A stretch of 60,810 bases of DNA, taken from contig JAVVRP010000005.1 of the NCBI GenBank assembly GCA_036654655.1, positions 1 through 60,810 on the forward strand, given 5' to 3'. Below are positions 34,940 to 57,100 of the stretch, piece after piece. The notes beneath the pieces were generated by a model. The model searched no databases. It saw nothing but the letters and a program-made list of their open reading frames with translations, and was not told the DNA's origin. Position numbers and translations under genes: made by a program. The stretch's first letter is position 1. Each line of letters opens with the position of its first letter. This DNA is from Clostridia bacterium (GTDB lineage Bacteria; Bacillota; Clostridia; Christensenellales; UBA1242).

Positions 34940-34985
34940 TTTATTTTGCCTCCTCTTATGAAATTTATTGTTTAAAGATTCACAA

Positions 34986-37900
34986 TTATGGACTAGCAAT
35001 TGGTTTTACATTTACTGTTCCAATTAACAACGATTTTGCTGATGTTCCATATTTTATAAATACATCAATTTCCAAATATTCAGTTCCCAATATAAAATCT
35101 GCGTTAGTTGTTAAATTGCCATTTGAATTAATTGTACCCTTTCCTGCTTTTATTTTAAACTCAATCAAGGCTGTTGAATAGGTTGCTAATGTTTGATAAT
35201 TATTGTTTTCATATATATCATTATCATAAGCATCTTTTAAGTAAAAATATTTTCCCCAGTTTGCAAGAGTTATAATTTTGTCGATTGGCAACTCAATTTC
35301 ACAAACACCACCATTGTAGGCTCTTGAAACATCAACCCAGTTTGCTTTTGTTGTAACCCTCATGTTAAGGTTTATTTGCTGTGCTACTTTAATGTTTGTT
35401 TTGTCAATTGGATTTGTTTTGTCAGTTAAAAATGACACAATAAAATTTTGATCCATTGGCTGATACATAATGTTTTTTCCAGATGGCGTTTTTGTTGTTT
35501 GCGTGTTTACATTTGTTTCAAAATCGCTGTCCAACTTTTTTTGAAAAAATAAACATGAGGTATCTTGGGTTTCAAACAACGCTGCTGAAATTCCCTTTAA
35601 TGTTTCAAGATCTGTTTTATTACCAAATTTTGTCAGTTCTGCATCACTTTCTCCAACACTTGAACTGTCCGAACGCAACCCGTTGTAATAAAAGCGAGAT
35701 TTTTCGCCATTTTTATAAAGTCCGTTCTTTATTGTGACTTGTTTATCAATTCCATTTGCGAGTGCAGAAATATGTTTTCTTTCATAAGCGTCAAGTTTTA
35801 CAGGTATGTTATAATTTTCAATTGTGCCATTTGTTTCACTTGTAAAACACGTTTGAACAATGTCATTTGCAGTTTTGCCATCATCACGTGTATTAATTGT
35901 TAAAATTTGGTCGTCCACAATTGTTACTGGGGCATTTAGATAAACATAAATTTTCATATTTGTGCCCTTTTGAGCACCACTTAAATTAGTTGGAATTGTA
36001 ATTGTTGTTCCGCTTATTGTTATTCCGCTTTCTGTTGCTGTTTTGCAGTTTACAATTCCTACGTTTGTACCATTTGCATCAAACGTTTCAATTCGTAAGC
36101 CTTTAATAACCCCCAAATTTTTGGCTAAAAATTCATCTTCATAAATAATGTTTGCTGTGCCTTCTGCAAACTTTATTGTGGTATCTTTATAATGCAATTG
36201 TATTGTTAAGGTTTCTGTTGCAACATTATCTATATTCTTTTTTATATTTATAAATCCATCTTTTAAATAATACTGCGGAATAAAATAATTTGGTGTTGCA
36301 CTTTTACTTTTCATAAAATCTTTATAAGGGACTCTTTGCGCATCATCAAAAAAGCCATCATCTCCAATTTTTGTAAACTTAAAACCATCTGTCTCCTTAA
36401 AGTAATTTTCGAAACCCTTCAAATTACTCGGATTAAAACAAATTGACTTTCCACTTGACAAAGAGCGCTCCCCAATTGTAAACTCTTGTTTTGCATCAAA
36501 AACTGAAACATAATCAATTATGTTAAATGGGACATCATCTCTTACGTATATATTTTTTAATTCATCACCCTTGGTTTGAAAATAATATCTTTGATTAACC
36601 TTTATGTTTTGCACCAAAGTTGTTTGTTCCCCTCCTTTTTCTAACGTTATTTTGACAATTAAATCTGCGCTAATTGGTGCTTCTCTTGGAAGATAATTAA
36701 GTTTAATTGTTAATATAGATTTTGTTATTTCATCAATTTCATGTGACCACTTAAATTTGGCATTTGAACATTCAATTTCAACACCATTATCAGGGATTTT
36801 TCCGCCATTAGTTTCAACTATATTTAACACAACATCATCAATCTCTGGGTTAATTGCCTCTGTGCTGGGTTTAAAAATAATTTTATCGCCCTCATAAACG
36901 TTTAATAATTGTACTTGATTTTCTATTTTTGGAAATGTTCCGCCCTTTTCCACGTTTAAACGTATGTAGTATTTAAAATTAAAACCAAATTCATCTTCTA
37001 TAACAAGAACTATATTTTTTGTACCATAACTTGGCTTTTTAAAAGTTAAAATTCTTGTTCCTTGCGAATTTAAATTTTCAATAGGCTCAAAGCCCTTTGG
37101 ACCATTGTAAACAATTTCAAAAATAGGCTTGTCAAGAACTTTTGCACTTAAATAATTAATATTCCCCTGTGCGCCTTGTGTTCTTGTTATAAGCACGTTG
37201 CTATATTTTCCCACTGTTTGAACAGGGCTTGATGTGCCAAGTATAAAATTGTGAGCCGTGCTGTCACTTGCTGTGTATGAATCAATTAAGTATGGGTTTT
37301 GTATGGAATTAATGTTAAATGTTCCGTTTGATTCATAATTTTTGATTTCAACAGAATAATCATGTTTTATTGTTGCGGAAAGAATTTGCTTGTAACTAAA
37401 TTCTCCACATTTAATTGTTATTCCATAAGTGACATAAACTCCACTGTTTAAATTTGTTCCGCCAGGAGCGCCTTGTGCAATCAATTTATAAAATCTGGAA
37501 TTTGATTGTTGTGGGGATGCAATTAACAAGCATTTATTTAAAGATTCTGGTGCAAAAGGATTAAGGGTTATTCCATCTTCCTTTTTGCCATAAAATTGCA
37601 TATATTTATAGTCGTTTGTTGAATTTTTATAATAAATATTGTTAACAATGTCGTATTGTGCAAGGGCTGTTTCCACAGAAATTGAATAAGAGCCCGTGTA
37701 CATATTGTTAACGGCGGGTGTTGCATCAACAATTTGTTGATGAGTTTTGCCTGCAAGCGTTATGCCATAAACCTCATTTAAATCTCTGCTTTCTTTACTT
37801 GCAACCATTTCCACTGTGCTTACATTGATTTTTGCGTTAAAGTAATATTCTACATAATAATTTGAAATCAAATTATTAATTTCTGGCAAATTTTTAAATT

Positions 37901-40900
37901 TGATTTTGTAAATTTTTTCCCATATTTGATTTAAACTTGTAACTTCATTTGTTTTAATGCTATCATCAGTTGTTACAAAAATATTTTTAAAAAGTTTGCT
38001 TTTGTCTATCCTGTATTCATTGTAAGTTATTGATAGCCCGCCCAAAACAGGCTTGCCCGTTGCATCAACAACCGCGTCACCATTTGCTGTTTGATATTTA
38101 TCTTTAATTTCTTCTCCTGTGCTTTCAATTCCCAAAAAGTATTTAGAACTTAATTCGGGATTTGCAAAAATGGAAGAAAGTGCAACGTCAATTTTTTCTG
38201 GCATAGAACTGCCATTTTGCTGACCGCTTGCATTGTTTAATGTAACTTTAAAAATGCTTGCACTGCTGGTGTAAACGTTTACAACATAAGTTGCAACTTC
38301 GTCCTCACCAATATGTATTGCAAAAATTATGCTCCCCGCTGTTTTGGTGTTTTTTAATTCTAGTGTAACATCTGATATTAAATCAAAACTTGTTGCACTT
38401 GCATTATTAACTTTAACGTCCACATCGCTGGATGATTTTATTTTTACTGTTGCCACACCGCCCTTTTCAACAACTACACGTGCAAGTTTTTCTGTGCCTG
38501 TTATAACGTTAGAAAGCATTTCATTTGCTTTGCTTAAATTAATTACGCAACCACTTACAACAGATTCTGCAACTTGATGCTCGCCACTTACACCTGGGTT
38601 GGATGTTGCGGTTGGATAATTTATGCCAACAACAATGTTTGGGGTTATTTGAACTTGATAATAGCCATAAAGTTTAAATGTGTTTGTTATTTTATCACCA
38701 AAAACCACAGTTGAATTTACAGATATTTTAACAATAACAGTCCCGCCGATTTGTGTGTTTTTTGCTTTGATTACAAGTGAAGAACATGAGGCAATATTTA
38801 AACCCGTTACAACTTCCGCCACAAAAGTATGCGTTGTGTGAAATTCGTTGAATATTTGATTTATGTTTATTGTTCTTGTGCAACCACCTTCTAGTGGAGG
38901 TAAATCTATGGTTACGCTGTCTTGCGATTCATGCCCGCTAACAACTCCAATATCTGCCATAACAATTAACTCATAGTTATATTCATAATTTACATTGTTA
39001 ATTAATATGGAAATTTTTAACACAAATGTTAAATCTGTTTCATCTTTTAAAACTGACGTGCAATAAACACTTCCATCTTTTAAAATTTTTATAATGCTTT
39101 TTGATGCTTGATTATAAGTTTTTGTAAGCGTTAAAAAGTTGTTATTAAATTCATAAACATATCCACTTTGGGTGCAATTGTTGGTTAATGATTGATTTAA
39201 ACTTATTTTTGTTATTGTTGCATCGGCTGGTGGAGTAATACAATTTTCATATATGCCATTTGCATTAATTGTCTTTTTTGTAACAACTGGATTTGTTAAC
39301 GATTTCCCTATTACAATTGGAAATTGCCATGATGTTCCATTTGGAGCATAAGCAACAAGAGTGCTTTGCAAATCAAAAGGCAATTTGCTTTTGTTTGTTA
39401 TTTCAAGTTTGCAAATTCCGTTTTGAACCACTTGTAAAACCGAAATTGTTCCGTCAACAGTTTGTTCGGTGGCAACTGACAAATATTTTACAAGGTGCTG
39501 TGCATTTTGATTTTGCATAGACAAACAAAATTTTAAACTTGAAGTAGCAACATTTTGTGAAACTCCCTCTTGCTGTAACAGTGTAAATTCTTTTGTTAAA
39601 GTAGTTCCATTTTCCAATCGTCCATTATTTATTAACGATTCTGGCCCATTAACATTTAAATATATTACTGGATTTTCTATTCTTTCATTTGTTAAAATAA
39701 AGTTGTCCAAATTTTTAGTGCTAAAAACATTGTAATAACAAGTTGCTCGGCTACCCTCTGCCAATGAAATTTTTACTCGAATCATAATTTCATGGAATTT
39801 AACAGAAAGTATTCCGCTGTTAACACCTGTTCCAAAACTTGCATAAGTTGAATTGTTTTGTTTTTCAATTAACTTGAAAACTCCATTTTCCTGCAAAAAC
39901 ACGCTATCAATTTCAAAATTTACTTTGTTGCCGTTACTTATTTCTGCTTTTGATTTTATGCTAACAATTTTGTAACGTTTTCCATTAACAGATTTGTTTG
40001 GAACAAGATTACTTTGAGCCTCGTTAAAATTAATTTCTTTTGTCAAAATTCCTTCTGACATTAAAATCGTTTCGAATGGCCATTTTGTTATATTAAGCAC
40101 ATCACCATCGTTTTGACTTTGGTCTGGTGTTAATTCTTTAATATATGGATAGGCTGGAACAATTGAAACGTCTGCCAAAACATTAAGCCTAACAATTATT
40201 TTAAGCCCAAAAATTGTTGCAACAACAAAACACGCCTTATTTATTGGGACATCACTAAAATTAATTTTACCAACTTGCTTTTCTTCAATTATTTTGCTTT
40301 GAACAGCGGCAAAATCCACTGCTGATAGGGAATCTTCGGCTTCTATTGTAAAGGTTGCAAAACTGGACAAAACTTGTTTGCTAAAAATATTTTTAAGGTC
40401 TATTGAATTTGTGCCTTGTGCATTATATTGAATGTTTTTTGCAATTTTGTTGTTGGTCCAAAAATTTTTATTTAGCATGTTAGAAAGATTTAACTTTCCA
40501 TCAATATTTGTAAATTCAAAATCTTTTAATCCACTTTCTGTTTCTTGTTCCAGCCCGATTGCATTTGTTTTTTCATTAATTACATCACTTTTTACAGAAA
40601 AGAAATTATATTTAATTGGGCATAACAAAATTGGAAAATCTCTTGATGCAACTTTTTCGCTTGCACCTTTTCCCATCTTACAAGTTAAGGTTACAAAACA
40701 ATCTTTACCTGTTACAATTCCAGAAAGTTGATTGATTTTTGTGCCGTCATAAAACTCAGCAGGAATTGAATAAGTTGCCGAAAGTTCACCACTGGCAAAA
40801 CTTGTAAAATAAGATGGAATATTTATTTCTCCGCCCGAAATTATGTCACCGCTTGAAAGAAATAAATATTGTTTTCCATTATAAACAACAAAATGGGAGT

Positions 40901-43900
40901 GGTGGTCTTCATTTGGAATAATGTTTGGACATAACACAACATCAAAATAAGAATAAACCATTCTGGAAATTCCGTCATTAATTTCAACAGTTTTAGAACT
41001 ATCTGCGTTTTTAAGCATGTAACCGTTGTAACATAGCACAACTTTGTACATTGTTGGTGCTTTTATTGGTGCTGTTGGTGTAACTTTTCCGTCTGTGGCA
41101 GTTAAAGTGTTTCCCACAACATCTGCTGTTGTTAAATTAACAAATTTTGAAATTGTGTCCCCAGTATAAATTAATTGCCCCAAAACTGTTATTTTACTTT
41201 GATCTATTATATTTTCACTTATATTACTGTTAATTTTGGTAATATTTAAGTTATTGTCAGATGCAAAATCAGATGCAAAATTTGTGTTGTTTGGTTGGTT
41301 TAAATAAAACACTGATGTGCTTTCAATTTTGCCCTTTGCGTTGGAATTAATGTAAAATCTGAACACTTTGTTCCAAGAATATGGGCTATCAATTATGGTG
41401 TAGTTATTGTCTTTTAAACTTGCAACACACAAATTAAACTCTTGCATTTGCCCAAATTTTGTGGTTATATTTTTGATATCAGGAGAAAAGCCGAATTTTT
41501 TGTTAAAAGCCACTACGTTAGAACTTGAATTAAATCCTGTGGTTTCCGATTTAAATGCAACCGATAAATTATTGTCTTTGGATTTAACAAAAGTAATGCT
41601 TAATGAAAAATCTAATGTTGCTCCGTCAAAAATCCCTGTAAACAAATTATTGTTTGCATCAACAAAACTTTGAGCATTAGGATCCCCCGCCGTGGTTACC
41701 CCACCACTTATCATAATGTTAGGCTCAATGTTAAGTTCAATATCTTGGCTAAGCCCCAGCCCAGCAATACTAGCCGTTAAATTTATGGTAAATCTGCTGG
41801 CAAAATGTTGCAAAATTTCAATTTGAGTTATATTGCCCGTTGTTTCCGTTATTTTGAGCATATCTTTGATTGAATTTTTAATTACGTCCGAAGTTAAATC
41901 AGTATTTAATTTGTACGTTATAAGTGAACTTGCATCAATTTCATCTGTAATTTCATCTGTTTTAAACTTCCAACTTAAAAGTCCTTTAATTTTTGTTGTT
42001 TCCGTTCCAATCGTAATGCTTGACGGCGTTATATTAATTTTTCTGCCTTTGTTTCCGTAAAGAGAAATTGTTTGCTTTTTAAAGTCATAAGATGGGCTGG
42101 ACGCTGATTTTGAATAAATTGAAACATGGACAAAATCTTTTCCATCTATTGTTGAATTTAAATTTTCTTGAATAATTTCCACATTTGAAATTGGAATGAC
42201 TTTAACATTAAAAGTAAATTGTGCCTGTGTAATTTTTTCACCCTGTGAGTTGTTGTAACACAATGAAATGTTTGCCGTGCCACTTCCAACAAAACTAAGT
42301 GTTTTGCCAATTACTTCTGCAACATTGTTTGTTACGTCAATTAATGCAATTACTTTTGAATCACTTGTTTCAACAAAATATGTGGGATAGGTTGTTGGCT
42401 CTTTAAACTTATCCTGACACACAATGTTTAAACATTTGTTATCATCCAAAAATTTAATTGATTTGCCATTTGTTGTGTGTGTTGTTATTGCTGTTGTGGC
42501 ATCGGTCAGCGAAACAGTTGTGCTAATTATAATTGGCTCACTGTTTTTGTTGTATATTTCCCCCTTATCAACTGGTGGAGTTGCTTCCCCCGCCACTTTT
42601 CCAGATGGAATTAAAGATTCTTTTATCACTTTAAATCCAAAATTATTTGAACTTGCAAATGCATTATAAATTTGTATAAATTCAAGTTTTTTGTTGCCCG
42701 TTTCTGTTTTGCTTGCTGTTTCTGCATAGGTTGTAACAACAATTTCCATTGCCCCATGTGAAGCAATAGGTTTGTAAATCAGTTTAATTGAATATTCATA
42801 ACTTTTTTCCACATAGTTTAACGGGATTGCTGATATTGAGCATTTAAATTTAGACTCTGCTCCGTCCCAAACACTTGAAATAAGTGGACTAAGCAAAATT
42901 TCAGATTCCGAAGTATGCACAAATTTTAGCAACAATTCACCATTTTGAACTGATTTTTTAAGTTGCTCAACATTATTTGAATTAATGGAAACATAAAAAG
43001 CGTTTTGGCTTTCGGGCTGGCTTATTGAAGTGTCCATTCTGGAATCTTTGTATGCCAAGTATGTTTTTTCTAATAATGTATCCTTTCCCTCTGTAACTGC
43101 AATTCCTTTAAATTTTCCTGTACTAAGTTCTGCAAGAACAACATTTCCAGACAAACTTTTTAGCGTTTCGCCAACAAAAATGTTTATAAATTCAATATTA
43201 TTTCCAGAATCAACACTGCTTTTGTCAAACTCATAAGAACCGTCACTATTAATTATTATATCACCATTGCGATCTGTTTTTAATGTTGCAAAAAATATCT
43301 TAAACGTTTTGCCACTTGACTCTTTTGTTGGTTGCAAAATATGTGAAAGAGGTATTTCATATATGTTTTGTGCACCATCAACCTTTGAATCGGTTGAAAC
43401 AGAATTATTAACAATAAACATTCCCTCAACTTTTGTGCACAAGCATGCAGGTTTGTCCACAGTTTCACCAGTGCCCAAAACAAAAAATCTTATTGTTTTA
43501 TAATAATTTGCATTGGGTATATTTACATTTAAAGTTCCATTTAAAGTTTTTGTTAAATCAAATTCAGGCAATATTTGCTTTGAATTTTCACCACCGTTTA
43601 TTTCGTTTATAATTGTAATTTCAACTTGTGAATTATCAATCCAATTAACTGGATTTGATGCGGGTGCAATAACATTAAAGTTGTATACGTGTTGTGGCAC
43701 AACAAGTTCGGCGTCAGATTTTTCTAACATGTATTCAATAATCATTTTGTAACTTCCAAGAGCCGTTGCAGAAAATTGCCAATAACTGTTTTCAACAAAC
43801 AATTTATTTGTTGTTGGCAAGTAAAAAGTTTTTGCATTCATTAAAACTGTTTCTTTTTTATCAACAAGGTCAATAATTGGGTTTTGCGCTAACATATCAA

Positions 43901-45017
43901 CATCAACCCATTCACCCGTTTTTAATGTTTGCACTTCAAACCTTATGCCAACACGTTTTATTTTATCTTGCAAAGGTGTTCCGTCACTTGCCTTGAAATT
44001 AAGGTCTAGATTATTTTCTGCATTTCCAACTTCACCACGTTTTGCATAAAAGGTTAAAAGTTGATTAAGTGTATGAAAATGCTCCCCGCTTACATTTGCC
44101 GTGAAAGTTTGAATTGCTTTTGTTACAAATGTTAAGTTTTTAACCGCCTTTTTGCTATCACCAATTTCTTGTTTGTTTATAACCGCAGTTAGCAAATCTT
44201 CTGGACCAAGATTTTTGCTTGTAAACGATTCTTGAATTTTTGCAGTTTTAAAAACATAAGCATCAATTTGCACAGGAATATTTTCTTCTGTTTGAGCAAG
44301 CGCTACAAAAACATTTGATTGTTCAACACGCTCCACCAAAGAACTTTGCTGTGATTGCGTGCTAAAATATATTGCTTTTTTGTTGGTTATGCCATTAAAA
44401 GCGTTCATTGAGTACATATATTCACTTGCCGATGGCAAAAACTTTACATTTGCCATTATTGAATTTCCAACTGCAAACGTTGTTGATGCTGTTGATCCCT
44501 GAATATTTTCCTTAAATTCTAGTGAAATGCTTTCAACAGGAACATCAACATTAAATGTTGCTTTTATGCTTTCTATTTCTATATTGGCACACGTTGCAAC
44601 AATTTTGCTATGCCCGCCCACCGTCCAAGGCATTGGTTCTTTTAAGGTATCATTAAACACCTTAACAATTTCTATTTTAAAATCTTGACCAATATTTACT
44701 CTTGTTGGAATTATAATATTTCCATCCGAAATCTTGCCATCACCAACATGCTGAAAATTTTGATCTTCAAATGAAATTGTAATTTGAGTTTCTGTAACTT
44801 TGTTTGTTGTTGTAATTATTTTTGCCACAAATGAATTTATATCTCCATCTATGTTATATCCATTGGAAGACACGCTGTAATCATCAACAACAATGGCAAT
44901 GTTTTCTGGAATAACCTTTTTGCCAACCTCACCAACAGCAAAAAGCACACCAACGGTTGCGCCCATCACTCCTATTAAAGATGTTAATACAATTAAAAAT
45001 ATTTTAAAAAATTTCAT
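34986..45017 (-). CDS. Giant (3343 aa) N-terminally anchored beta-rich surface protein, probably tandem Ig-like domains
   Basis: 10-kb ORF; MKFFK plus a hydrophobic helix; Big_2-like segments (DVPVESISL, TSDSKVI..GSGTANI); T/N/I/V-rich; no C-terminal anchor. Confidence 0.85.
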   Translation of the reverse strand: MKFFKIFLIVLTSLIGVMGATVGVLFAVGEVGKKVIPENIAIVVDDYSVSSNGYNIDGDINSFVAKIITTTNKVTETQITISFEDQNFQHVGDGKISDGNIIIPTRVNIGQDFKIEIVKVFNDTLKEPMPWTVGGHSKIVATCANIEIESIKATFNVDVPVESISLEFKENIQGSTASTTFAVGNSIMANVKFLPSASEYMYSMNAFNGITNKKAIYFSTQSQQSSLVERVEQSNVFVALAQTEENIPVQIDAYVFKTAKIQESFTSKNLGPEDLLTAVINKQEIGDSKKAVKNLTFVTKAIQTFTANVSGEHFHTLNQLLTFYAKRGEVGNAENNLDLNFKASDGTPLQDKIKRVGIRFEVQTLKTGEWVDVDMLAQNPIIDLVDKKETVLMNAKTFYLPTTNKLFVENSYWQFSATALGSYKMIIEYMLEKSDAELVVPQHVYNFNVIAPASNPVNWIDNSQVEITIINEINGGENSKQILPEFDLTKTLNGTLNVNIPNANYYKTIRFFVLGTGETVDKPACLCTKVEGMFIVNNSVSTDSKVDGAQNIYEIPLSHILQPTKESSGKTFKIFFATLKTDRNGDIIINSDGSYEFDKSSVDSGNNIEFINIFVGETLKSLSGNVVLAELSTGKFKGIAVTEGKDTLLEKTYLAYKDSRMDTSISQPESQNAFYVSINSNNVEQLKKSVQNGELLLKFVHTSESEILLSPLISSVWDGAESKFKCSISAIPLNYVEKSYEYSIKLIYKPIASHGAMEIVVTTYAETASKTETGNKKLEFIQIYNAFASSNNFGFKVIKESLIPSGKVAGEATPPVDKGEIYNKNSEPIIISTTVSLTDATTAITTHTTNGKSIKFLDDNKCLNIVCQDKFKEPTTYPTYFVETSDSKVIALIDVTNNVAEVIGKTLSFVGSGTANISLCYNNSQGEKITQAQFTFNVKVIPISNVEIIQENLNSTIDGKDFVHVSIYSKSASSPSYDFKKQTISLYGNKGRKINITPSSITIGTETTKIKGLLSWKFKTDEITDEIDASSLITYKLNTDLTSDVIKNSIKDMLKITETTGNITQIEILQHFASRFTINLTASIAGLGLSQDIELNIEPNIMISGGVTTAGDPNAQSFVDANNNLFTGIFDGATLDFSLSITFVKSKDNNLSVAFKSETTGFNSSSNVVAFNKKFGFSPDIKNITTKFGQMQEFNLCVASLKDNNYTIIDSPYSWNKVFRFYINSNAKGKIESTSVFYLNQPNNTNFASDFASDNNLNITKINSNISENIIDQSKITVLGQLIYTGDTISKFVNLTTADVVGNTLTATDGKVTPTAPIKAPTMYKVVLCYNGYMLKNADSSKTVEINDGISRMVYSYFDVVLCPNIIPNEDHHSHFVVYNGKQYLFLSSGDIISGGEINIPSYFTSFASGELSATYSIPAEFYDGTKINQLSGIVTGKDCFVTLTCKMGKGASEKVASRDFPILLCPIKYNFFSVKSDVINEKTNAIGLEQETESGLKDFEFTNIDGKLNLSNMLNKNFWTNNKIAKNIQYNAQGTNSIDLKNIFSKQVLSSFATFTIEAEDSLSAVDFAAVQSKIIEEKQVGKINFSDVPINKACFVVATIFGLKIIVRLNVLADVSIVPAYPYIKELTPDQSQNDGDVLNITKWPFETILMSEGILTKEINFNEAQSNLVPNKSVNGKRYKIVSIKSKAEISNGNKVNFEIDSVFLQENGVFKLIEKQNNSTYASFGTGVNSGILSVKFHEIMIRVKISLAEGSRATCYYNVFSTKNLDNFILTNERIENPVIYLNVNGPESLINNGRLENGTTLTKEFTLLQQEGVSQNVATSSLKFCLSMQNQNAQHLVKYLSVATEQTVDGTISVLQVVQNGICKLEITNKSKLPFDLQSTLVAYAPNGTSWQFPIVIGKSLTNPVVTKKTINANGIYENCITPPADATITKISLNQSLTNNCTQSGYVYEFNNNFLTLTKTYNQASKSIIKILKDGSVYCTSVLKDETDLTFVLKISILINNVNYEYNYELIVMADIGVVSGHESQDSVTIDLPPLEGGCTRTININQIFNEFHTTHTFVAEVVTGLNIASCSSLVIKAKNTQIGGTVIVKISVNSTVVFGDKITNTFKLYGYYQVQITPNIVVGINYPTATSNPGVSGEHQVAESVVSGCVINLSKANEMLSNVITGTEKLARVVVEKGGVATVKIKSSSDVDVKVNNASATSFDLISDVTLELKNTKTAGSIIFAIHIGEDEVATYVVNVYTSSASIFKVTLNNASGQQNGSSMPEKIDVALSSIFANPELSSKYFLGIESTGEEIKDKYQTANGDAVVDATGKPVLGGLSITYNEYRIDKSKLFKNIFVTTDDSIKTNEVTSLNQIWEKIYKIKFKNLPEINNLISNYYVEYYFNAKINVSTVEMVASKESRDLNEVYGITLAGKTHQQIVDATPAVNNMYTGSYSISVETALAQYDIVNNIYYKNSTNDYKYMQFYGKKEDGITLNPFAPESLNKCLLIASPQQSNSRFYKLIAQGAPGGTNLNSGVYVTYGITIKCGEFSYKQILSATIKHDYSVEIKNYESNGTFNINSIQNPYLIDSYTASDSTAHNFILGTSSPVQTVGKYSNVLITRTQGAQGNINYLSAKVLDKPIFEIVYNGPKGFEPIENLNSQGTRILTFKKPSYGTKNIVLVIEDEFGFNFKYYIRLNVEKGGTFPKIENQVQLLNVYEGDKIIFKPSTEAINPEIDDVVLNIVETNGGKIPDNGVEIECSNAKFKWSHEIDEITKSILTIKLNYLPREAPISADLIVKITLEKGGEQTTLVQNIKVNQRYYFQTKGDELKNIYVRDDVPFNIIDYVSVFDAKQEFTIGERSLSSGKSICFNPSNLKGFENYFKETDGFKFTKIGDDGFFDDAQRVPYKDFMKSKSATPNYFIPQYYLKDGFINIKKNIDNVATETLTIQLHYKDTTIKFAEGTANIIYEDEFLAKNLGVIKGLRIETFDANGTNVGIVNCKTATESGITISGTTITIPTNLSGAQKGTNMKIYVYLNAPVTIVDDQILTINTRDDGKTANDIVQTCFTSETNGTIENYNIPVKLDAYERKHISALANGIDKQVTIKNGLYKNGEKSRFYYNGLRSDSSSVGESDAELTKFGNKTDLETLKGISAALFETQDTSCLFFQKKLDSDFETNVNTQTTKTPSGKNIMYQPMDQNFIVSFLTDKTNPIDKTNIKVAQQINLNMRVTTKANWVDVSRAYNGGVCEIELPIDKIITLANWGKYFYLKDAYDNDIYENNNYQTLATYSTALIEFKIKAGKGTINSNGNLTTNADFILGTEYLEIDVFIKYGTSAKSLLIGTVNVKPIASP

Positions 45018-45263
45018 TTGTTCCGCCTTTTATTAAATTTAAATTAGCGTGACTGTTTGTTTATTTTTTGGTTGTTTACTTTAAGTTTGTTTATTTTAAT
45101 AATGGTCATTTATATATCATGCACATAAATTTAACATTGATGTATTTTATCTCATTTATTATATATAATAACTCAAATTAAAGTCAATCAATTCAAGGGT
45201 GTAAGTCAAATATTTCCAAATTTCATTATTTTATTACAATTAATTAAAATTATTACTAAATAA

Positions 45264-45292
45264 TTGACAATTAAACACAATTATGGGATAAT
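45264..45292 (+). promoter_or_regulatory. sigma-A promoter of the repeat-rich hairpin protein
   Basis: TTGACA-N17-GATAAT with TGn, 19 nt before the ATG, which follows a GGAGG RBS. Confidence 0.7.
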
Positions 45293-45311
45293 ATTAAAAA
45301 CGGAGGATGAC

Positions 45312-47258
45312 ATGGCAAAAATAACATCAACCTTAAATCTTTTACCAAAAAAAATATTTGGCGAATTTGCAACAAAAAACATGCTGGAAGATGCAGAACA
45401 AATGTTAAATGATGCAGAACAAAAACAAAAAAATGCAAAACAAATGTTAAATGATGCGCAAACTGCCATTGATTCATCAAAAGAACAAATGCTAACAAAT
45501 GCAGAACAAATGTTAAAAGATGCAGAACAAATGCGAATAAATGCGAACCAAATGAAACAAAATTTAAAAGAAGCACAAATAGAAGCAGAGGACGCCACTC
45601 ATCAGTTACAAGAATTAACAATTATTAAAAAAATATTAAAAAATAAGGAGTGCAACGTTAACGTTTTAAACAGAGATGCTGAATTTGTAAAACAAGTTGC
45701 AAAAAAATATGATTTGGAAATGTCGTTTCACGCAATTTCTAATGCATCTTCCGCCGACACAAATTTTGAACAAACGCCTCCACTTACACAAAATATAACT
45801 CTTAAAGCATCTGCTGATTTTAAATTAAATGAAGAACAAAAAAACAATCTTTCAAAAAAAGTTGATTCTTACGAAGCGGGTGGAAGTTTTGTTTCATCAT
45901 TTGACGATGACAATCAACTAATATTAATTGAACTAAAACAACATGAAACAATTTTATTTAATCAACAAAAAATAAGAATTATGCAAAAACTTTTACAAAT
46001 AGGCAATCATAACGCACAAGATAACACAATTATTATGGATGATAACAGCCTTTATAAAAATCTTGCAAAAAACCTTGCAAAAAAATATAAATTTAATATA
46101 TCAATAGAAAATAGCAATGGCATTGCCACAGTTAACTTTTCAAAAACAAACAACACAAATATTTATTTAACCTCATTGGATAAACAAGAATTAACAACTG
46201 GAACAATTGATCATCAAAAAGCATTATTACCTTGGAAAAAAAATTATAGCAACAAAATTAATTTCCACTCTTTTATAAATAACAATGGAAATCTTATAAT
46301 TGCAGAAGATTTAAATACCAATAAAATTGTTTCTGGCAATGAACCTGTAAGAAAAAGCAGGCCAACTAACGAAGCCACAAAAGAAAGCGAATCAAAGGAA
46401 AGCAAGCAAAAAAACGAAGCCACAAAAGAAAGCGAATCAAAGGAAAGCAAGCAAAAAAACGAAGCCACAAAAGAAAGCGAATCAAAGGAAAGCAAGCAAA
46501 AAAACGAGGCCACAAAAGAAAGCGAATCAAAGGAAAATAAGCCAAAAGACGAGAAAAAAGGTTTGTCAATTTTTGAAAGTATTGCAATTCTTTTAAGCAT
46601 TATTATGTTTGCTGGTGCCATTTTGTTTGGTTCACCTGTATTTTTGGCAATTGCCTTTGCTGGCGCCATTGGAACATGCGTTGCAAAAACAATGAATTTT
46701 GGAAGTCTTTCTGGCATTCCTTCAAAAATAAAAAAAGTTGATAAAACAAAAAAGAAAAAAGAAAAAAATGTTGAGTTAGAAAATGGCAAAAAAGAATATC
46801 ATTCTGCAAAAAAAGAATTTTTTAAGGACAGCGCTTTTGAATTTTTAACCAAAAAAGAAAAAAAGGAATTGGTTAAATATATGGAAAACGGAGATACTGT
46901 TGACTCAGCGTTTGAAAAACTTAATATTGAATTGAATGATACAAACGGCACTTTAAAATCTAAAATGGAAGGACTGCAAAAAAAATATAAAAATTGTAAA
47001 ATATCAAGCAAAAAACAAGATGAAATAAAATATGATGCATTAAATAACGAAAATCAAGATGAAATAAAATATGAAATAAAATATGATGTATTAAATAACA
47101 AAAAACAAAATGAAATAAAATATGATGTATTAAATAACAAAGAACAAAATGAAATAAAATTTGTTGTATTAAATAACGAAAGCAAAAAACAAGATGAAAT
47201 AAAAAAGCGTAATGCAAATTTGAACAATAAACAAGATGAAAATTCTTTTATGTTTTAA
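45312..47258 (+). CDS. Repeat-rich hypothetical protein with an internal hydrophobic hairpin (648 aa)
   Basis: GGAGG RBS and ATG at 45312; heptad repeats, a duplicated domain, a 15-aa repeat, a bilobed hydrophobic segment, IKYDxL repeats; no signal peptide. Confidence 0.85.
   Translation: MAKITSTLNLLPKKIFGEFATKNMLEDAEQMLNDAEQKQKNAKQMLNDAQTAIDSSKEQMLTNAEQMLKDAEQMRINANQMKQNLKEAQIEAEDATHQLQELTIIKKILKNKECNVNVLNRDAEFVKQVAKKYDLEMSFHAISNASSADTNFEQTPPLTQNITLKASADFKLNEEQKNNLSKKVDSYEAGGSFVSSFDDDNQLILIELKQHETILFNQQKIRIMQKLLQIGNHNAQDNTIIMDDNSLYKNLAKNLAKKYKFNISIENSNGIATVNFSKTNNTNIYLTSLDKQELTTGTIDHQKALLPWKKNYSNKINFHSFINNNGNLIIAEDLNTNKIVSGNEPVRKSRPTNEATKESESKESKQKNEATKESESKESKQKNEATKESESKESKQKNEATKESESKENKPKDEKKGLSIFESIAILLSIIMFAGAILFGSPVFLAIAFAGAIGTCVAKTMNFGSLSGIPSKIKKVDKTKKKKEKNVELENGKKEYHSAKKEFFKDSAFEFLTKKEKKELVKYMENGDTVDSAFEKLNIELNDTNGTLKSKMEGLQKKYKNCKISSKKQDEIKYDALNNENQDEIKYEIKYDVLNNKKQNEIKYDVLNNKEQNEIKFVVLNNESKKQDEIKKRNANLNNKQDENSFMF
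45381..45560 (+). repeat. Imperfect 21-bp coding repeats (ML[E/N/T/K][D/N]AEQ heptads)
   Basis: atgttaaatgatgcagaacaa-like units, about 8 copies. Confidence 0.8.
46368..46536 (+). repeat. 45-bp tandem coding repeat x3.75 (NEATKESESKESKQK)
   Basis: Units start at 46368, 46413, 46458, 46503; near-identical. Confidence 0.95.
47010..47205 (+). repeat. Imperfect ~39-bp coding repeat (Q[D/N]EIKYD[A/V]LNN)
   Basis: caa(g/a)atgaaataaaatatgatg(c/t)attaaataac recurs 4-5 times. Confidence 0.85.
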
Positions 47259-47307: not shown

Positions 47308-47445
47308 TTAAAAGTGGTTAAAATGTTAAACCAAAATATCAAATTTTTATTATTTTAATTTTAATTTTGTATTGGTTATAAAAACAGACTTTTAATGACA
47401 AGTATTTTAAAGTTTGTTGTGTATAATAACTTAAAAGGAGAGAAT

Positions 47446-47679
47446 ATGAGTAACATAAAAACAAATTCAACAAATTGGAACAGAGGCGGAAAAAGATTTT
47501 TGCTTGCATTAATTTGTTTCTTTTTTGGATGGCTTGGAATTGACAAATTAATTCTTGGCTCACCAAAATTATTTATTGTTAAATTGCTTTTAAACCTTGT
47601 TATTATTGGTGAAATTTGGAACATTTATGACATTATTTGCGCACTTTTGGGCAAATACAAACTTAACCCACTTAACTAA
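47446..47679 (+). CDS. Small TM2 (NINE) domain membrane protein
   Basis: LALICFFFGWLGIDKLILG...IW.IYDII TM2 pattern; AAGGAG RBS; start moved to MSNIK. Confidence 0.85.
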   Translation: MSNIKTNSTNWNRGGKRFLLALICFFFGWLGIDKLILGSPKLFIVKLLLNLVIIGEIWNIYDIICALLGKYKLNPLN

Positions 47680-51608: not shown

Positions 51609-52622
51609 TTAAAGGATGTTATTTTCAATACTTGTTATTTTGGACTTTCCAGCATCCATTTCAAGTTGCCTTAATGTTTTAATTTCTACAATATTTCTTG
51701 TATAGCCATAACAGTCAACTGTTTCCACATTAATTGGTAACATTGTGCTTTCTATTTGCTCATTACTTAACCCGCATTTTTTTAACGAAACAATTTTGAT
51801 TTTGGCATCCAAAATAAGCATTTCCCTTATCTTTTTAACAAATCTGTTATCACTTACTCTTGCAATGCTTGGAGCAACTTTTTTGCCATTTGCAAACTTT
51901 ACAATAACAAAATTTTCTTTATCAACAGAAACTTTATCTTCTGGAATAATTTCTTTTAAAAACTGATTTTTAATTGTTTGAGAATGGCAATAAATGGAAG
52001 TTTTGTCGTTTTGAATTTGCAAGTTTGGGGCAACCAAAACTGTTTTGGAACAATTAAATGGCGCAAATTGTGAGTCTATTTTATTTGTAATTTTTGCAAG
52101 TTTTTGGATTTTGGGCTCACTATTTGCCGAATTTTGAGGTGTTTTATCTTCGTTTAACAAAGCAACAGACACTCTTAATTTTTGTTGCTTGTAATATAAT
52201 TCTTTTTGTTTATCGTTAAAATATGACATGTTAGAACAAGAATATGGAAGAATTCCCTCGTTTTGAAATTGTTGGGCATCACTAAGTTGTTTTAATGATT
52301 TTGCAGATTTTTGCATTATTAAATTTACATCGGATTTTGATAAATTTTGTTCTGCTCTGTTTGATAATTGATGTTCTGCAATCTTGGTTAAAAGTTCAAG
52401 ACCTTCTGCTCTTTTTTCATTATTGGAGATCCATTTTGATTTTGAATGTGCCGTTAACTCTATGCTTGCAACAGAAATTCCAACACCACCCGCAACTGTT
52501 AACAAACTCCACCATGGGCTAATTCCAACCGCGGAAGGAACAAATGCACACAACAAACCAATTAAAATTGGACCGCCAATTCTAATTGCTTTTAAAATTA
52601 TTTCTTTTTGTTTTTGTTTCAT
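51609..52622 (-). CDS. Hypothetical protein with N-terminal hydrophobic hairpin (paralog B)
   Basis: Two adjacent Gly-rich hydrophobic helices, then a soluble domain; ATGA overlap with the upstream gene. Confidence 0.85.
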   Translation of the reverse strand: MKQKQKEIILKAIRIGGPILIGLLCAFVPSAVGISPWWSLLTVAGGVGISVASIELTAHSKSKWISNNEKRAEGLELLTKIAEHQLSNRAEQNLSKSDVNLIMQKSAKSLKQLSDAQQFQNEGILPYSCSNMSYFNDKQKELYYKQQKLRVSVALLNEDKTPQNSANSEPKIQKLAKITNKIDSQFAPFNCSKTVLVAPNLQIQNDKTSIYCHSQTIKNQFLKEIIPEDKVSVDKENFVIVKFANGKKVAPSIARVSDNRFVKKIREMLILDAKIKIVSLKKCGLSNEQIESTMLPINVETVDCYGYTRNIVEIKTLRQLEMDAGKSKITSIENNIL

Positions 52623-53551
52623 TTATTTTCCATCCCTTTTTTTTCTTCTTTAAATATTTCATTATAAATTAAGTCAATTTTTTCCTGCTTTAATATTTTT
52701 ATTTCATTTATGTTTTTTAATTTTCCATTTAATAAAGTCACAGTAACTGGAAACGCATTTTGTGGAAGTGTTTTAAGGTCTTCAAACAAAATTTTAACAG
52801 CATTTTCTAAATTTTTTGGCTGAGAAACACTTACCATTAAACTTTTTGCATTGTTTGAACATTTTACTTGCGCAATATTTTCTTTGCCAGTTGTTGGTTC
52901 TTCATTGCTAAATTGTTTGATAAAATTTTGTTTTGACGTTGGACTACTTAACGCACAAAATGTTTTATCATTTGTTAAATAACCTTTATCAGTTTTTAAA
53001 TGTACTGGCTTTGAATATTGATTTTCTGCAAAAGTTTTCATAACATCTTGGCAATCGTTAAACTTGTTCTGTGCCAAGTTAATTGCTTTTTCTTTGCCTT
53101 TTTGTTTTGCTGTGTACAAATTGTATTCACAATCTTTATATTTTTTATAATTTTCCGTCTCGTTTTCTGTTGCTTCAAAAAATGGGATTGTTCTAACAAA
53201 AGGGCTGTTTCTTTTGAAAAAAACACATTTTTTAACGGTGTTAATTAAAGTTGCCTGATTTTGCGCCGAAATAACATTGACAAACTTTTCTGTTTTTAAA
53301 TCTTGATTTGTTAAATCATTTTCTGCTTTAACAATTTTGCTTTTTTTATAATTAGTTACGGCTTTAACAATGCCAACTCCGCTCCAATACAAAGCATTAA
53401 TTCCCCCGCCAACACCACAAACGCCATATAAAAATAATTCTTTAAAAATATTAAGTTGAACCAAATTTAACAATCCAGCACCAACAACAATGCCCGCAAT
53501 ACCCAACGTTATCCATGCAAGCAACGCTCCAATTTTTTGTGATTTTTTCAT
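52619..53551 (-). CDS. Hypothetical protein with N-terminal hydrophobic hairpin (paralog A)
   Basis: Two Gly-rich hydrophobic helices, then a soluble domain sharing NDKT/KEN/P.V motifs with paralog B. Confidence 0.85.
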   Translation of the reverse strand: MKKSQKIGALLAWITLGIAGIVVGAGLLNLVQLNIFKELFLYGVCGVGGGINALYWSGVGIVKAVTNYKKSKIVKAENDLTNQDLKTEKFVNVISAQNQATLINTVKKCVFFKRNSPFVRTIPFFEATENETENYKKYKDCEYNLYTAKQKGKEKAINLAQNKFNDCQDVMKTFAENQYSKPVHLKTDKGYLTNDKTFCALSSPTSKQNFIKQFSNEEPTTGKENIAQVKCSNNAKSLMVSVSQPKNLENAVKILFEDLKTLPQNAFPVTVTLLNGKLKNINEIKILKQEKIDLIYNEIFKEEKKGMENK

Positions 53552-54129: not shown

Positions 54130-57100
54130 TTAAGATATAACGTCCGGAGATTTGTTGGATAGTTTTTCTATTATTTCATATTTTCGTTTGCGATAAATTA
54201 TGTAAGCAGTTGTAAGCAAAATTAAAATTAATGCTATTCCGCCACAAACACACCCAATAATTATGCCCGCACTGTTGGTTATAATAAACGTTGCGTTTGG
54301 CCCTAAACTTCCAAACAATCCACCCAAGTGCAACTCGTCATAAGATTCAAATAAGAAAATATTTTTTCTGGATTTGTTTCCAAGTTCAAACACACCATTA
54401 AAATTGTGTTCTGGCGTTCCTATTGGAACCCAAAACTTTTCTTTTAAATCTATGTTCATTTCAACCTTATACCATGCCTCGGCATAATTAACTTTGCCAA
54501 TTTCTTCAACATTTGCATTGTCTATTGTTTTTCCATTATTTATTAAAAATGCCATTGCAGAAAATTCGTTATTTGTTGAAATTATATAAGGATCGTTTTT
54601 TGTGCCAGTTCCATTAAACATTTGCCAACTATCAGTCCAAATAAGCCTTTTAAACGATGCTGTAATTTGATTTAACACATTTTCGTTAAGCAATTTGAAA
54701 ATATTTTCACTGGAAAGTGTTATCATCTTGGTTTCAATTAGGCTGGCAATAATTTTGCCATTAAGTGAAATATCAACAACTGTATGTCTGCTTGTTGGCC
54801 TTGCCTGAACAGAAAAGTCTTGTAAATAAGAATATGTTTTTACTTTTGAAGGATTGGACATATTGTCCACGCCAATAAATATTGAACCCATTGAATTTGA
54901 ATTAGAAGTAAACGTAAAGGAGTATTCAATTGGAATAAATTCTGGCGTTAGGGTTAAGCCCGTTAAATCTATTGGTTGAACCACATATGTTGCAACTTTG
55001 CCTGTTTCCATCAGCCATCCAGTTTGATTGCCAACCCAACCACTTTGATTGTACCCTTGATTTAAACTAAATGTAAACGTTAATCTGTCTTCTATAAAAG
55101 TGTTATATATTGCTTCGTTATTATTGTACACAAGTGTAACGCCTTTAACTTTAAGAACATAGCCATGTTCACCTTTTGTAAACTTAACAACAGATGGCAA
55201 CCCTTCAAAAACTGCCGTGTACACAATTGGAGATTCTCCAATTGTTATTGTATAATTTGCATCTGTGCTAACATATTCAGTTCCACCATTAATAATCCAT
55301 CCTTTAAAGGCGTAACCTGCGTATGGCTTTGCACTTAAACTAATTTGCGTGCCTGTTAAATAAAACTCACTTGCAGATGAAACATCAACAAAATTATCGT
55401 AACTTATTGTGCCACGTGAAGAATAATTAACATTCACAGTTGTTTTAACAAGATACACAAGTTCTATCGTAATTTTGTCACTTGGCATAACAAAACTTAT
55501 TTTTAAATTTTGTCCAGTTTGAATTGGATCAACAACGTTTGCCTTGTAAATTTTGTAACCAGCATATTTATAACCTATTTTATTTTCAGGAACCTCAATT
55601 TCCACCAAACTGCCAATATCATAACTTACCTGATTGGTGTCATAGTTAAATCTCATTCCATAGGTTTGAGTAAAGAAAGCACGTTGATTTTGAACTGATT
55701 GTGCGCCATGTGGAAAAAACTGTACTTCAACAACTGGTGTTGCAATTTGCCATCTTGCATACAACTCCACATTGTTATCCACGCTTTGTAAGTTTCCAGA
55801 CATTTCATTTCCAAAGCCTTTCCAACCAAAAATACGTTCGCCTGCATACAAAGTGTAAAGAGCACTTGTTTCGTCCACAAAATATCTTTGGTCATTAACA
55901 ACACTGTTTGCATATTCGCTCCATCCAAGGAAATTGTAATTTTGTCTGGAAATATATTTTATTAAATTTTCGTTTACATAATCGCCACCATAATCCGGAT
56001 ACATTTCGCCATATCCAATTTGTGCAACAACATTTGATGGAGAACCAACATAGTTAAACACAAAATTAAGGGTTATTTTTTTTGCAATAACAAATATATT
56101 AATTTCCCCAACAGCCTCTGTTTCTATTTGAATTATGGACTGACCAACATCTCCGCTTTGTGAATATGTTGGAGCAGTTACAAACTTGTAAAGGCCATTT
56201 GCAACATCAAATGTATGCCCTTGTATAATTGTTTCAATTTTAATTATAGCATTTGTTTGAACAACCAGTTTTAATGTTGTGTTAAATCCGCTGTCCGGAA
56301 TTGTGGTTACTATTTTTTTAATGCCTTCACTGCTTCCTTCGCAACGCATTTTAACCAAATTGCTTAATTCTATAACTTGCAATGTTGCCAAATTTTTAAA
56401 CTGTAAAACAATTTCTCTGGTTTTTGCAACAATTAAAAGCGTTAGCGATTGTGATTGTGTGAATCCAGAATATTCTAATAAAATTGTGCTTTGTGACCTT
56501 GTTATAATTTTAACAAAGCCTTCCAAACTGCTTGAATTTTCAGCCCAATCATATCCTTGTGGAAGTGTTAACTCAAAACGTATTGGCGTGCCTGTTTTTG
56601 TTAAAAATGGCAAAAATTTAACATTATTTAAATCAACGCCAACAACCCCAGAACTTGTTCCTTCCATAGGCACAAACTTTAAATTACTGCAATAATCCCA
56701 TGTTATATTTGTAATTCTGTCCTCTTGCCTAACAACAGCAGAAACATTAATAGTTAAATCATCAGCCTCAAAAACAGCATTAAATTTTAAATTCTGTGTT
56801 ACATTTTGAAGTTTTTCAAACATGTTTTCAAACAATATATCCGTTGCAATTTTTCCATCTATCTGTTGCCATTTGTTAAAGTGATATCCCGCGTTAGGAA
56901 GAGTTAAAATTGTAACATTATCAATTATTTGCTCTTGCGTTAAAAGTGCATTTTCAAACTTTACATAATAGAACAGCGATTTTTTAAATTGGCAATCGGT
57001 TATGTTTTTTCCAACTGCAACATGGCCATTTTCTCCTGCTGTTATATTTATTTCAAATTCAGCACGCTCAAAAATTACAGTCAACGTTATATTTGTTGTT

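Follow-up and report, generated by a model that had tools for sequence, protein, structure and literature searches.

A 60,810-nucleotide (nt) stretch of a Clostridia bacterium genome (NCBI assembly GCA_036654655.1, contig JAVVRP010000005.1; GTDB lineage Christensenellales, UBA1242), referred to below as the window, carries at positions 45312-47258 of the forward strand a single open reading frame (ORF) that encodes a 648-amino-acid (aa) protein, P0001. With a probability of about 0.55, this protein is a strongly diverged local member of an undescribed, fast-evolving family whose members are held in the bacterium's own membrane by a central hydrophobic hairpin. In the set of genomes searched, members occur in a single family-level lineage, made up of Clostridia with reduced genomes (0.6-1.6 Mb) that bear sporulation genes. 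P0001, an apparent orphan among billions of sequences, was placed in this family through synteny and architecture and then through a profile match with a shuffle control. A preliminary description of the window, made from the sequence by itself, had interpreted the same gene as encoding a secreted effector that inserts into a host membrane. No support was found for that interpretation: the genome yielded no export markers and no effector repertoire, the organism is a spore-former, and the gene travels with that of a giant surface protein.

Hairpin proteins encoded head-to-head with giant surface proteins

The P0001 gene, starting at 45312 (+), lies head-to-head with the gene of a giant surface protein, which starts at 45017 (-). 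The features that enter into the comparison with other genomes are listed here.

34986..45017 (-): gene of the 3,343-aa surface protein, divergent from the P0001 gene, with an N-terminal transmembrane (TM) anchor (residues 1-30, 44928-45017)
45158..45187 (-): promoter-like site directed toward the giant gene (TTGACT, 18 nt, TATAAT), in the shared 294-bp intergenic region
45312..47258 (+): coding sequence of P0001, the 648-aa hairpin protein (ORF call)
46354..46552 (+): 45-nt (15-aa) tandem repeat, 4.4 copies, forming a low-complexity spacer ahead of the hairpin
46470..46868 (+): hairpin module, residues 387-519, comprising a K-rich flank, two lobes and a second K-rich flank (family profile match)
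46560..46694 (+): the bilobed hydrophobic hairpin proper, residues 417-461, with a G-S-P turn at 440-442

A search with the first 600 residues of the giant protein detected orthologs in 21 of the 121 genomes of the lineage, including that of the window (G000), and in 10 of its 58 genera. Most of them are 3,400 to 4,900 aa long; three shorter frames are probably cut. Upstream DNA was requested for 18 of these orthologs, and four of the stretches were ended by the contig at 161 to 1,264 bases, leaving 14 usable. In 10 of the 14, the head-to-head neighbor is a protein of 541 to 957 aa that has the same plan as P0001 and is separated from the giant gene by about 180 to 580 bp. In these relatives, a hydrophilic, variable N-terminal part is followed by a low-complexity tandem-repeat spacer and a lysine-rich stretch, then by one central hydrophobic region of 32 to 47 aa with a P/G turn, a K/R-rich stretch, and a helical tail of 240 to 440 aa rich in K, E, and Q. 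Their spacers are acidic or rich in P, Q, T, and G, with repeats that differ by genus and always precede the hairpin; P0001 likewise has its spacer, the 15-aa repeat, directly ahead of the hairpin. An architecture rule (one hydrophobic region of 30 to 50 aa, preceded by more than 250 aa and followed by more than 150 aa) selected 1 of the 806 ORFs of G000, P0001 itself, and none of the 144 ORFs in the neighborhoods of tilS, a gene found downstream of P0001, in 13 relatives. The tilS-downstream synteny in 13 relatives revealed no conserved neighbor.

The N terminus of the giant protein is unusually conserved. In an alignment of 106 columns, 8 of the first 23 are invariant versus 5 in the rest, which covers residues 24 to 90. 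This suggests that the first 23 residues are conserved beyond the needs of a signal peptide and could form a functional TM anchor, one face of which resembles a glycine zipper; because the anchor of this partner is so conserved, helix-helix packing in the membrane is suggested as well. A co-fold of the hairpin module with this anchor, run without controls, scored 0.01 against a mark of 0.32 and carries no weight for or against contact between the two. The residues invariant in the eight giant proteins compared (those of the window and of L061, L062, L064, L065, and L067-L069) are M1, F3, K5, F7, L8, G16, G19, and G23; the eight proteins are otherwise 31 to 49% identical.

Profile evidence for family membership

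A profile hidden Markov model (HMM) was made from the hairpin modules of ten relatives, with P0001 excluded, and scored against the 806 ORFs of G000. With flanks of -30/+60, P0001 ranked first of the 806 (E value of 8.3e-10, 34.2 bits; runner-up, 0.08); with flanks of -15/+30, its E value was 1.1e-6, and with flanks of +/-5, it was 0.044, rank 1 being kept. Because a hydrophobic, lysine-rich composition could fake such a match, a shuffle control was run, in which the real P0001 segment scored 40.6 bits. When the three regions were each shuffled within themselves, the mean score was 11.3 bits and the maximum 29.2, with 0 of 300 shuffles attaining the real score. Shuffling of the hairpin alone gave a mean of 21.9 bits (0 of 300), whereas shuffling of the flanks alone gave a mean of 31.6 bits (11 of 300), so the order-specific signal sits in the hairpin itself. 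An hhalign comparison of P0001 with the pair of family members from genus g43 aligned 61 columns, covering the hairpin and 20 residues past it, at 30% identity (E value of 0.0015, probability of 17%). Within genera, invariant columns outside the N-terminal domain are most concentrated in the hairpin with its C-terminal flank, and the spacers vary.

A module profile of 11 sequences (A5) matched 39 of the 121 genomes of the lineage at an E value of 0.001 or better, a figure that includes the 11 training genomes. Eight nontraining loci were inspected: four are true members by architecture (in G052, G075, G098, and G115), and the other four, with E values of 1e-4 to 1e-3, were rejected as unrelated 151-aa or multipass proteins. 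A further member is encoded in G003. In an order-level sample of 151 genomes, three matched at a cutoff of 1e-5 or better, namely, G000 itself, a new member of 741 aa (G261), and one genome of another family, whose FtsK-like protein was judged from its sequence to be a false positive. The 145 genomes sampled from 41 other families of the order gave no true matches; broadly conserved homologs in free-living clostridia, which the preliminary description had named as evidence that would speak against an effector, were thus not seen. A full-length family profile retrieved 13 proteins from a collection of 5.8 billion, none of them named or with a Pfam domain. A Pfam scan of seven relatives gave nothing above threshold, and a profile search of the PDB with the g15 alignment gave chance matches only.

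Direct searches with P0001 leave it isolated. A word-indexed search of the 5.8 billion proteins recovered P0001 alone. An exhaustive HMMER search with residues 106-346 against 1.84 billion representatives returned P0001 and one 3,873-aa repeat protein, whose E value of 5.7e-7 is summed across 11 weak stretches; with 23% pairwise identity over 102 aa in a region that straddles its own repeat boundary, this protein was rejected as a repeat-inflated chance match. Forty relatives yielded two weak, broken or coiled-coil matches. In 120 genomes of the lineage, searched with two subqueries, the best nonself E value was 1e-3, and the seven matches inspected were discarded, their underlying ORFs having unrelated architectures. 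Only 1 of 154 candidates from species-representative genomes matched, in the TM region only and in a Bacteroidetes metagenome-assembled genome; among JGI metagenome contigs, 0 of 420 candidates did. Nothing above threshold for P0001 was found in Pfam, NCBIfam, PHROGs, or PDB sequences, the Pfam scan giving two subthreshold low-complexity matches, DUF2207_C (18.6 bits; cutoff, 33) and AJAP1_PANP_C. The ESM Atlas had no usable match for P0001 or for the N-terminal domain of one relative, and no paralog of P0001 was found in G000. A 595-aa protein of a family relative (L047, G124:C10), phage tape-measure-like on reading of its sequence, was set aside as a weak false match.

The P0001 gene and its domain organization

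The ORF is real: it has a GGAGG ribosome-binding site and, as read from the sequence, what appears to be a strong sigma-70-like promoter. Its 1,947-nt reading frame stays open in DNA of 27 to 30% G+C. The coordinates given in the preliminary description hold: the ATG at 45312 follows GGAGG at a distance of 5 nt, and the upstream TTG belongs to a -35 box; a longer version of P0001 starting at this TTG, at position 45264, was ruled out because the TTGACA there serves as the -35 box. A second assembly has an intact allele of 678 aa, identical to the 648-aa version but for two extra 15-aa units. The strong promoter, the good Shine-Dalgarno sequence, and this intact allele argue that the gene is live. 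The control signals and the remaining features of the protein are as follows.

45264..45292 (+): sigma-70-like promoter of the P0001 gene (TTGACA, 17 nt, TG-extended GATAAT; 11 of 12 positions match)
45302..45306 (+): Shine-Dalgarno sequence GGAGG, 5 nt ahead of the ATG (sequence read)
45348..45638 (+): long N-terminal helix, residues 13-109, carrying the MLxDAEQ heptad array (repeat finder, AlphaFold2)
45690..45932 (+): unit 1 of a putative duplication, residues 127-207 (weak support)
46068..46307 (+): second unit of this putative duplication, residues 253-332 (weak support; best fold matches are small, common alpha/beta folds with a Z of at most 8.6)
46740..46991 (+): helical K/E-rich region past the hairpin, residues 477-560 (AlphaFold2)
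47020..47181 (+): tandem repeats of the C-terminal tail, 39/51 nt (13-aa units; repeat finder)

Tandem Repeats Finder reported three arrays in the gene. The first is the N-terminal MLxDAEQ heptad array already recognized in the preliminary description, a 21-nt repeat of 6.8 copies (45388-45533; translated NMLEDAE/QMLNDAE/...) that lies within the single helix modeled by AlphaFold2 (AF2; single-sequence mode) across residues 13-109, with a predicted local distance difference test score (pLDDT) of about 60 to 69. The second is the 15-aa array, likewise described previously as near-perfect and variable, and found to be both: its 4.4 copies show 94% matches between units and stop 8 nt short of the hairpin, and its copy number differs between assemblies. 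The cluster at 90% identity consists of four records, one of which (678 aa) has the two extra units, and two others are fragments that end or begin within the array. The third array, the 39/51-nt repeat of the tail, had not been listed before.

The hydrophobic segment of about 45 aa, which the preliminary description had put at about 46560-46690 and called bilobed, corresponds to residues 417-461 (46560-46694). It is part of the sole hydrophobic stretch of P0001 (residues 414-465; Kyte-Doolittle, 19-aa windows above 1.0), which AF2 divides into two helices (420-439 and 442-460) about the G-S-P turn. The N terminus has no hydrophobic segment by Kyte-Doolittle windows and hence no Sec-type signal, in agreement with the earlier statement that a signal peptide is lacking. 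The tail is charged, as had been noted, being lysine-rich and repetitive in a protein that is 15% K, 11% N, and 10% E over its whole length. Blocks within residues 491-540 attain a pLDDT of 62 to 79, although the AF2 model of the complete protein is poor overall (pLDDT of 43.8).

The claim that fared worst concerns two tandem, alignable domains of 110 to 120 aa. The units are closer to 80 aa, and comparison of the two halves by BLASTP gives an E value of 0.5 (24% identity over 89 aa); in a local Smith-Waterman alignment, z is 1.8, a score reached by 118 of 2,000 shuffles. The boundaries first proposed give a z of 4.4 (1 of 2,000 shuffles), yet they were picked after the fact. In an AF2 model of residues 106-346 (pLDDT of 50.5), the two units resemble each other, each running strand-helix-strand and closing with a beta hairpin; a duplication is no more than possible. 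Foldseek searches with the P0001 models gave nothing at an E value of 0.001 or better (best, 0.04). The best VIA-align result, a Z of 8.6 over 66 residues, points to small, common alpha/beta folds like R3H or IF3-C, and it falls within the range that the tool itself calls typical of unmatched models. With pLDDT values of 43.8 and 50.5, the AF2 models were too weak for a fold assignment, which was dropped.

Membrane topology and proposed role

Both termini of P0001 had been expected on one side of the membrane, and this stands as an architectural expectation: given a bilobed hairpin whose tight turn carries no charge, a coiled-coil-like helix, and the lack of a signal peptide, the two ends should be on the same side. 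The first lobe is preceded by a 416-aa N-terminal part, and a part of this size without a signal is not expected to cross the membrane via Sec or YidC. Seven K/R residues are found among the 20 that precede the hairpin and eight among the 25 that follow it, the turn being uncharged, and the same charged-flank pattern is seen in eight tabulated relatives. By the positive-inside rule, such K/R-rich flanks would keep both ends in the cytoplasm and leave the turn alone at the outer face. We infer that the hairpin is inserted in the cytoplasmic membrane of the bacterium itself, both ends facing the cytoplasm.

A more tentative proposal than family membership is that P0001 acts as a membrane-tethered cytoplasmic scaffold for organizing, positioning, or anchoring the giant adhesin; the repeat spacer would serve as a fast-evolving tether of adjustable length. 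The nearest functional analogy for such a role would be the terminal-organelle cytoskeleton of Mycoplasma pneumoniae, on which the scaffold proposal is based: its proteins HMW1, HMW2, HMW3, and P65 are signal-less, coiled-coil, acidic/proline-rich proteins that work with large adhesins, in what is also a reduced-genome lineage derived from Firmicutes. Unlike P0001, those proteins have no membrane hairpin, and their link to adhesins is known, whereas that of P0001 is inferred. Sequence similarity to them was looked for solely through the Pfam, NCBIfam, and PDB scans of P0001, which were negative. Other membrane- or hairpin-anchored proteins suited to comparison are EzrA, a coiled-coil scaffold of Firmicutes, the flotillins, the reticulons, and the caveolins. 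In these, as is proposed for P0001, a hydrophobic anchor holds long helical cytoplasmic parts, and short lobes suit a wedge or re-entrant hairpin. P0001 differs from them in matching no family, in having its anchor at the center instead of the N terminus, and in its repeat spacer and giant-adhesin synteny, both absent from those families.

Several observations weigh against the assignment of P0001 to a family of own-membrane hairpin proteins. In 4 of the 14 usable giant-gene neighborhoods, the hairpin gene is replaced by clpX or other genes, and the family members in genera g4, g53, and g55 do not adjoin any giant gene, so the hairpin/giant pairing holds in five genera (g1, g13, g15, g43, and g56) and is not universal. 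Hydrophobic segments raise profile scores, and architecture alone took the shuffled sequences to 29 bits. Comparison of the g15 trio with P0001 by hhalign yields nothing, phmmer connects family members within genera only, and sequence support for the membership of P0001 does not extend beyond the hairpin module. The N-terminal domain of the g15 trio can be aligned by hhalign with that of the g43 pair (97 columns, E value of 9.8e-5, probability of 58%), and an HMM of this domain made from six sequences (g15, g43, and g56) gave, among the matches listed, none to P0001 at an E value below 13. By eye, the family members in G012, G082, and G128 also lack it; given these four exceptions, the globular N-terminal domain is not family-defining. 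As to topology, the lobes of some members are only 12 to 17 residues long, so the hairpin may be monotopic and dip into a single leaflet, and acidic or proline-rich spacers with copy-number polymorphism are classic in surface-exposed proteins, which would favor an outside location.

The organism and its export systems

The genome of the window, 889 kb in 45 contigs, is 97% complete with 31.7% G+C; its family-level relatives have 0.6 to 1.6 Mb and other families of the order 1.3 to 3.2 Mb. It retains SpoIIE, Spo0A, and SpoIVA, which, together with the low G+C content, marks the organism as an endospore-forming Firmicute. An endospore program thus sits in a genome of mycoplasma size. The PF00006 ATPase was not found in G000, which leaves this genome without a detected F- or V-type ATP synthase. 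The passages of PMC12306168, a paper of 2025, devoted to the uncultured family UBA1242 (Christensenellales) describe genomes mostly below 1 Mb, unexpected sporulation genes, the lack of an F0F1 ATP synthase, and many hypothetical membrane proteins, and propose a partner-dependent lifestyle; the traits of G000 fit this description.

Neither the type III secretion system (T3SS)/flagellar export gate PF00771 (FHIPEP) nor the T3SS/F1-type ATPase PF00006 was found in this 97%-complete genome; of the 14 reference genomes that served as controls, 4 and 14, respectively, gave a response. VirB4 (PF03135) and WXG100 (PF06013) were not found in it either, and control genomes responded. FtsK/SpoIIIE (PF01580) is represented in G000 by one clear protein, an 878-aa ORF on another contig. 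EssC of type VII secretion, with a soluble N-terminal part, two TM helices, and a cytoplasmic C-terminal part, is recognized by FtsK/SpoIIIE ATPase domains past the TM pair; PF01580 was not found in P0001, and a reading of P0001 as EssC was dropped for want of an ATPase domain. A holin was dropped on size. Five of the 806 ORFs have a single hydrophobic region of 36 to 65 aa that starts after residue 40, and only P0001 has a long N-terminal part ahead of it. With 1 of 806 ORFs and no injection markers found, there is no sign of an Inc-like repertoire or of a known export route.

Ten ORFs of 1,239 to 5,403 aa make up about 10% of the coding residues of G000 by a crude ORF call. Gut clostridia with such reduced genomes are uncultured, presumably rely on other cells, and devote about a tenth of their coding capacity to giant surface proteins; the pair of a giant adhesin and a hairpin-anchored repeat protein is a concrete, testable candidate for their partner-interface machinery.

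Alternative explanations

The alternative that survives best, although itself unlikely, is a surface-exposed P0001, with the N-terminal part and the spacer outside, the spacer crossing the wall, and repeat variation arising from immune, phage, or partner-cell pressure. The order of parts in P0001 (functional N-terminal part, repeat spacer, hydrophobic segment, and basic tail) mimics that of wall-anchored proteins such as the LPxTG sortase-anchored ones; the spacers of the relatives are rich in E/K/S or P/T/D, the repeat copy number differs between assemblies, and the gene adjoins that of a giant surface protein. However, P0001 differs from LPxTG proteins in having neither a signal peptide nor an LPxTG motif in its sequence, in a hydrophobic region that is bilobed and twice as long, and in a tail of 189 aa in place of a few residues. 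An outside location would require export of the 416-aa N-terminal part with no signal to direct it. Lysines are abundant on either side of the hairpin, a tail of 190 to 440 aa comes after it, and a hairpin would place that basic tail outside as well.

A bolder extension of the scaffold proposal, and a long shot, is that the hairpin and giant proteins form a lineage-specific cell-contact organelle, with the hairpin protein as its membrane-embedded base in partner-dependent, spore-forming mini-clostridia; at its boldest, the proposal would have this protein passed into the partner membrane in an Inc-like manner, a transfer made without a known injection system.

That P0001 is an Inc-like translocated effector whose hairpin enters a host or partner membrane is very improbable, and its likeness to Inc proteins is architectural only. 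As in those chlamydial proteins, P0001 has one bilobed hydrophobic region (about 40 to 50 aa, short turn), lacks a Sec signal, and has soluble parts that resemble coiled coils and termini predicted on one side, and the members of its family are poorly conserved in sequence. The effector reading also draws on the reduced genome, on the partner-dependent lifestyle that PMC12306168 proposes in its passages on UBA1242, and on fast evolution and repeats, which are common in effectors. Unlike the Inc proteins, however, P0001 comes from a spore-forming Firmicute in whose genome no T3SS components were found, is present in one copy instead of dozens, and has its hairpin in midprotein, after the 416-aa N-terminal part, in synteny with a giant surface protein gene. 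Searches of Pfam, NCBIfam, PHROGs, and the PDB gave no sequence match to a described Inc family; Pfam in particular, Inc included, gave none at an E value of 0.01 or better beyond the two subthreshold low-complexity matches. Because secretion system, taxon, and sequence similarity all fail, P0001 is not an Inc member. The absence from the genome survey of FHIPEP, the PF00006 ATPase, VirB4, and WXG100 and the presence of a single such protein among the 806 ORFs, with no family expansion, speak against effectors more generally, and the conserved head-to-head arrangement with a membrane-anchored surface protein suggests a structural partner over cargo. The preliminary description had also named a single ordinary TM anchor as an observation that would count against an effector; the anchor proved to be a two-lobed hairpin, and the broad conservation mentioned above was not seen either, so the effector reading is unsupported rather than refuted.

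It is scarcely probable that P0001 is a sporulation-related membrane or coat protein at the forespore membrane, whose lysine/serine-rich repeats would be loosely comparable to those of CotG-type coat proteins. The genome does keep spo0A, spoIVA, and spoIIE, the last of these only 2 kb from the P0001 gene, and the tandem repeats are K/S/E-rich. The promoter, however, looks sigma-70/sigma-A-like and not mother-cell specific, and in the relatives the family gene tracks the giant gene and not tilS/spoIIE (the 13 tilS neighborhoods have no ORF of this architecture among their 144). Least probable of all is that the ORF is meaningless or in decay and that its frame has stayed open by chance and through repeat expansion in AT-rich DNA. 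One could cite for this the lack of a direct homolog among billions of proteins, the three separate tandem-repeat arrays, and the low AF2 confidence, but it is at odds with a 1,947-nt frame behind a strong promoter and Shine-Dalgarno sequence, with identity outside the repeat in a second assembly, and with the family profile match and conserved synteny.

Neighboring genes

Downstream of P0001 are a gene for a small TM2-domain protein, tilS, and spoIIE, in this order. The TM2-domain protein (PF05154, E value of 5.8e-8) is encoded at 47395-47679 (+), 137 nt past P0001; a promoter-like site and no terminator-like site were found between the two genes, and this gene is not kept beside the family gene in relatives. 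On the other side, a gene for a cardiolipin-synthase-like PLD protein (33497-34999, -) overlaps the 3' end of the giant gene with its first 14 nt, which makes cotranscription of the two probable.

Two of the ten large ORFs of the genome, plus the start of a third (54130-60810), are in or beside the window; the ORF at 54130-60810 has Listeria-Bacteroides repeats and YDG and MBG domains. Two adjacent ORFs (337 and 310 aa) at 51609-53551 (-) belong to no Pfam, NCBIfam, or PHROGs family; the sole lead is a weak SLATT-domain match (E value of 0.032), and both weakly match the hairpin-module profile (0.05 to 0.3). In genus g4, the neighbors of the hairpin gene include small proteins with hydrophobic segments at both the N and C termini. 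In genus g15 (L071, L076, and L083, from G014, G084, and G122, respectively), a conserved protein of 180 to 181 aa with a signal-like N terminus is encoded on the same strand, 3' of the hairpin gene.

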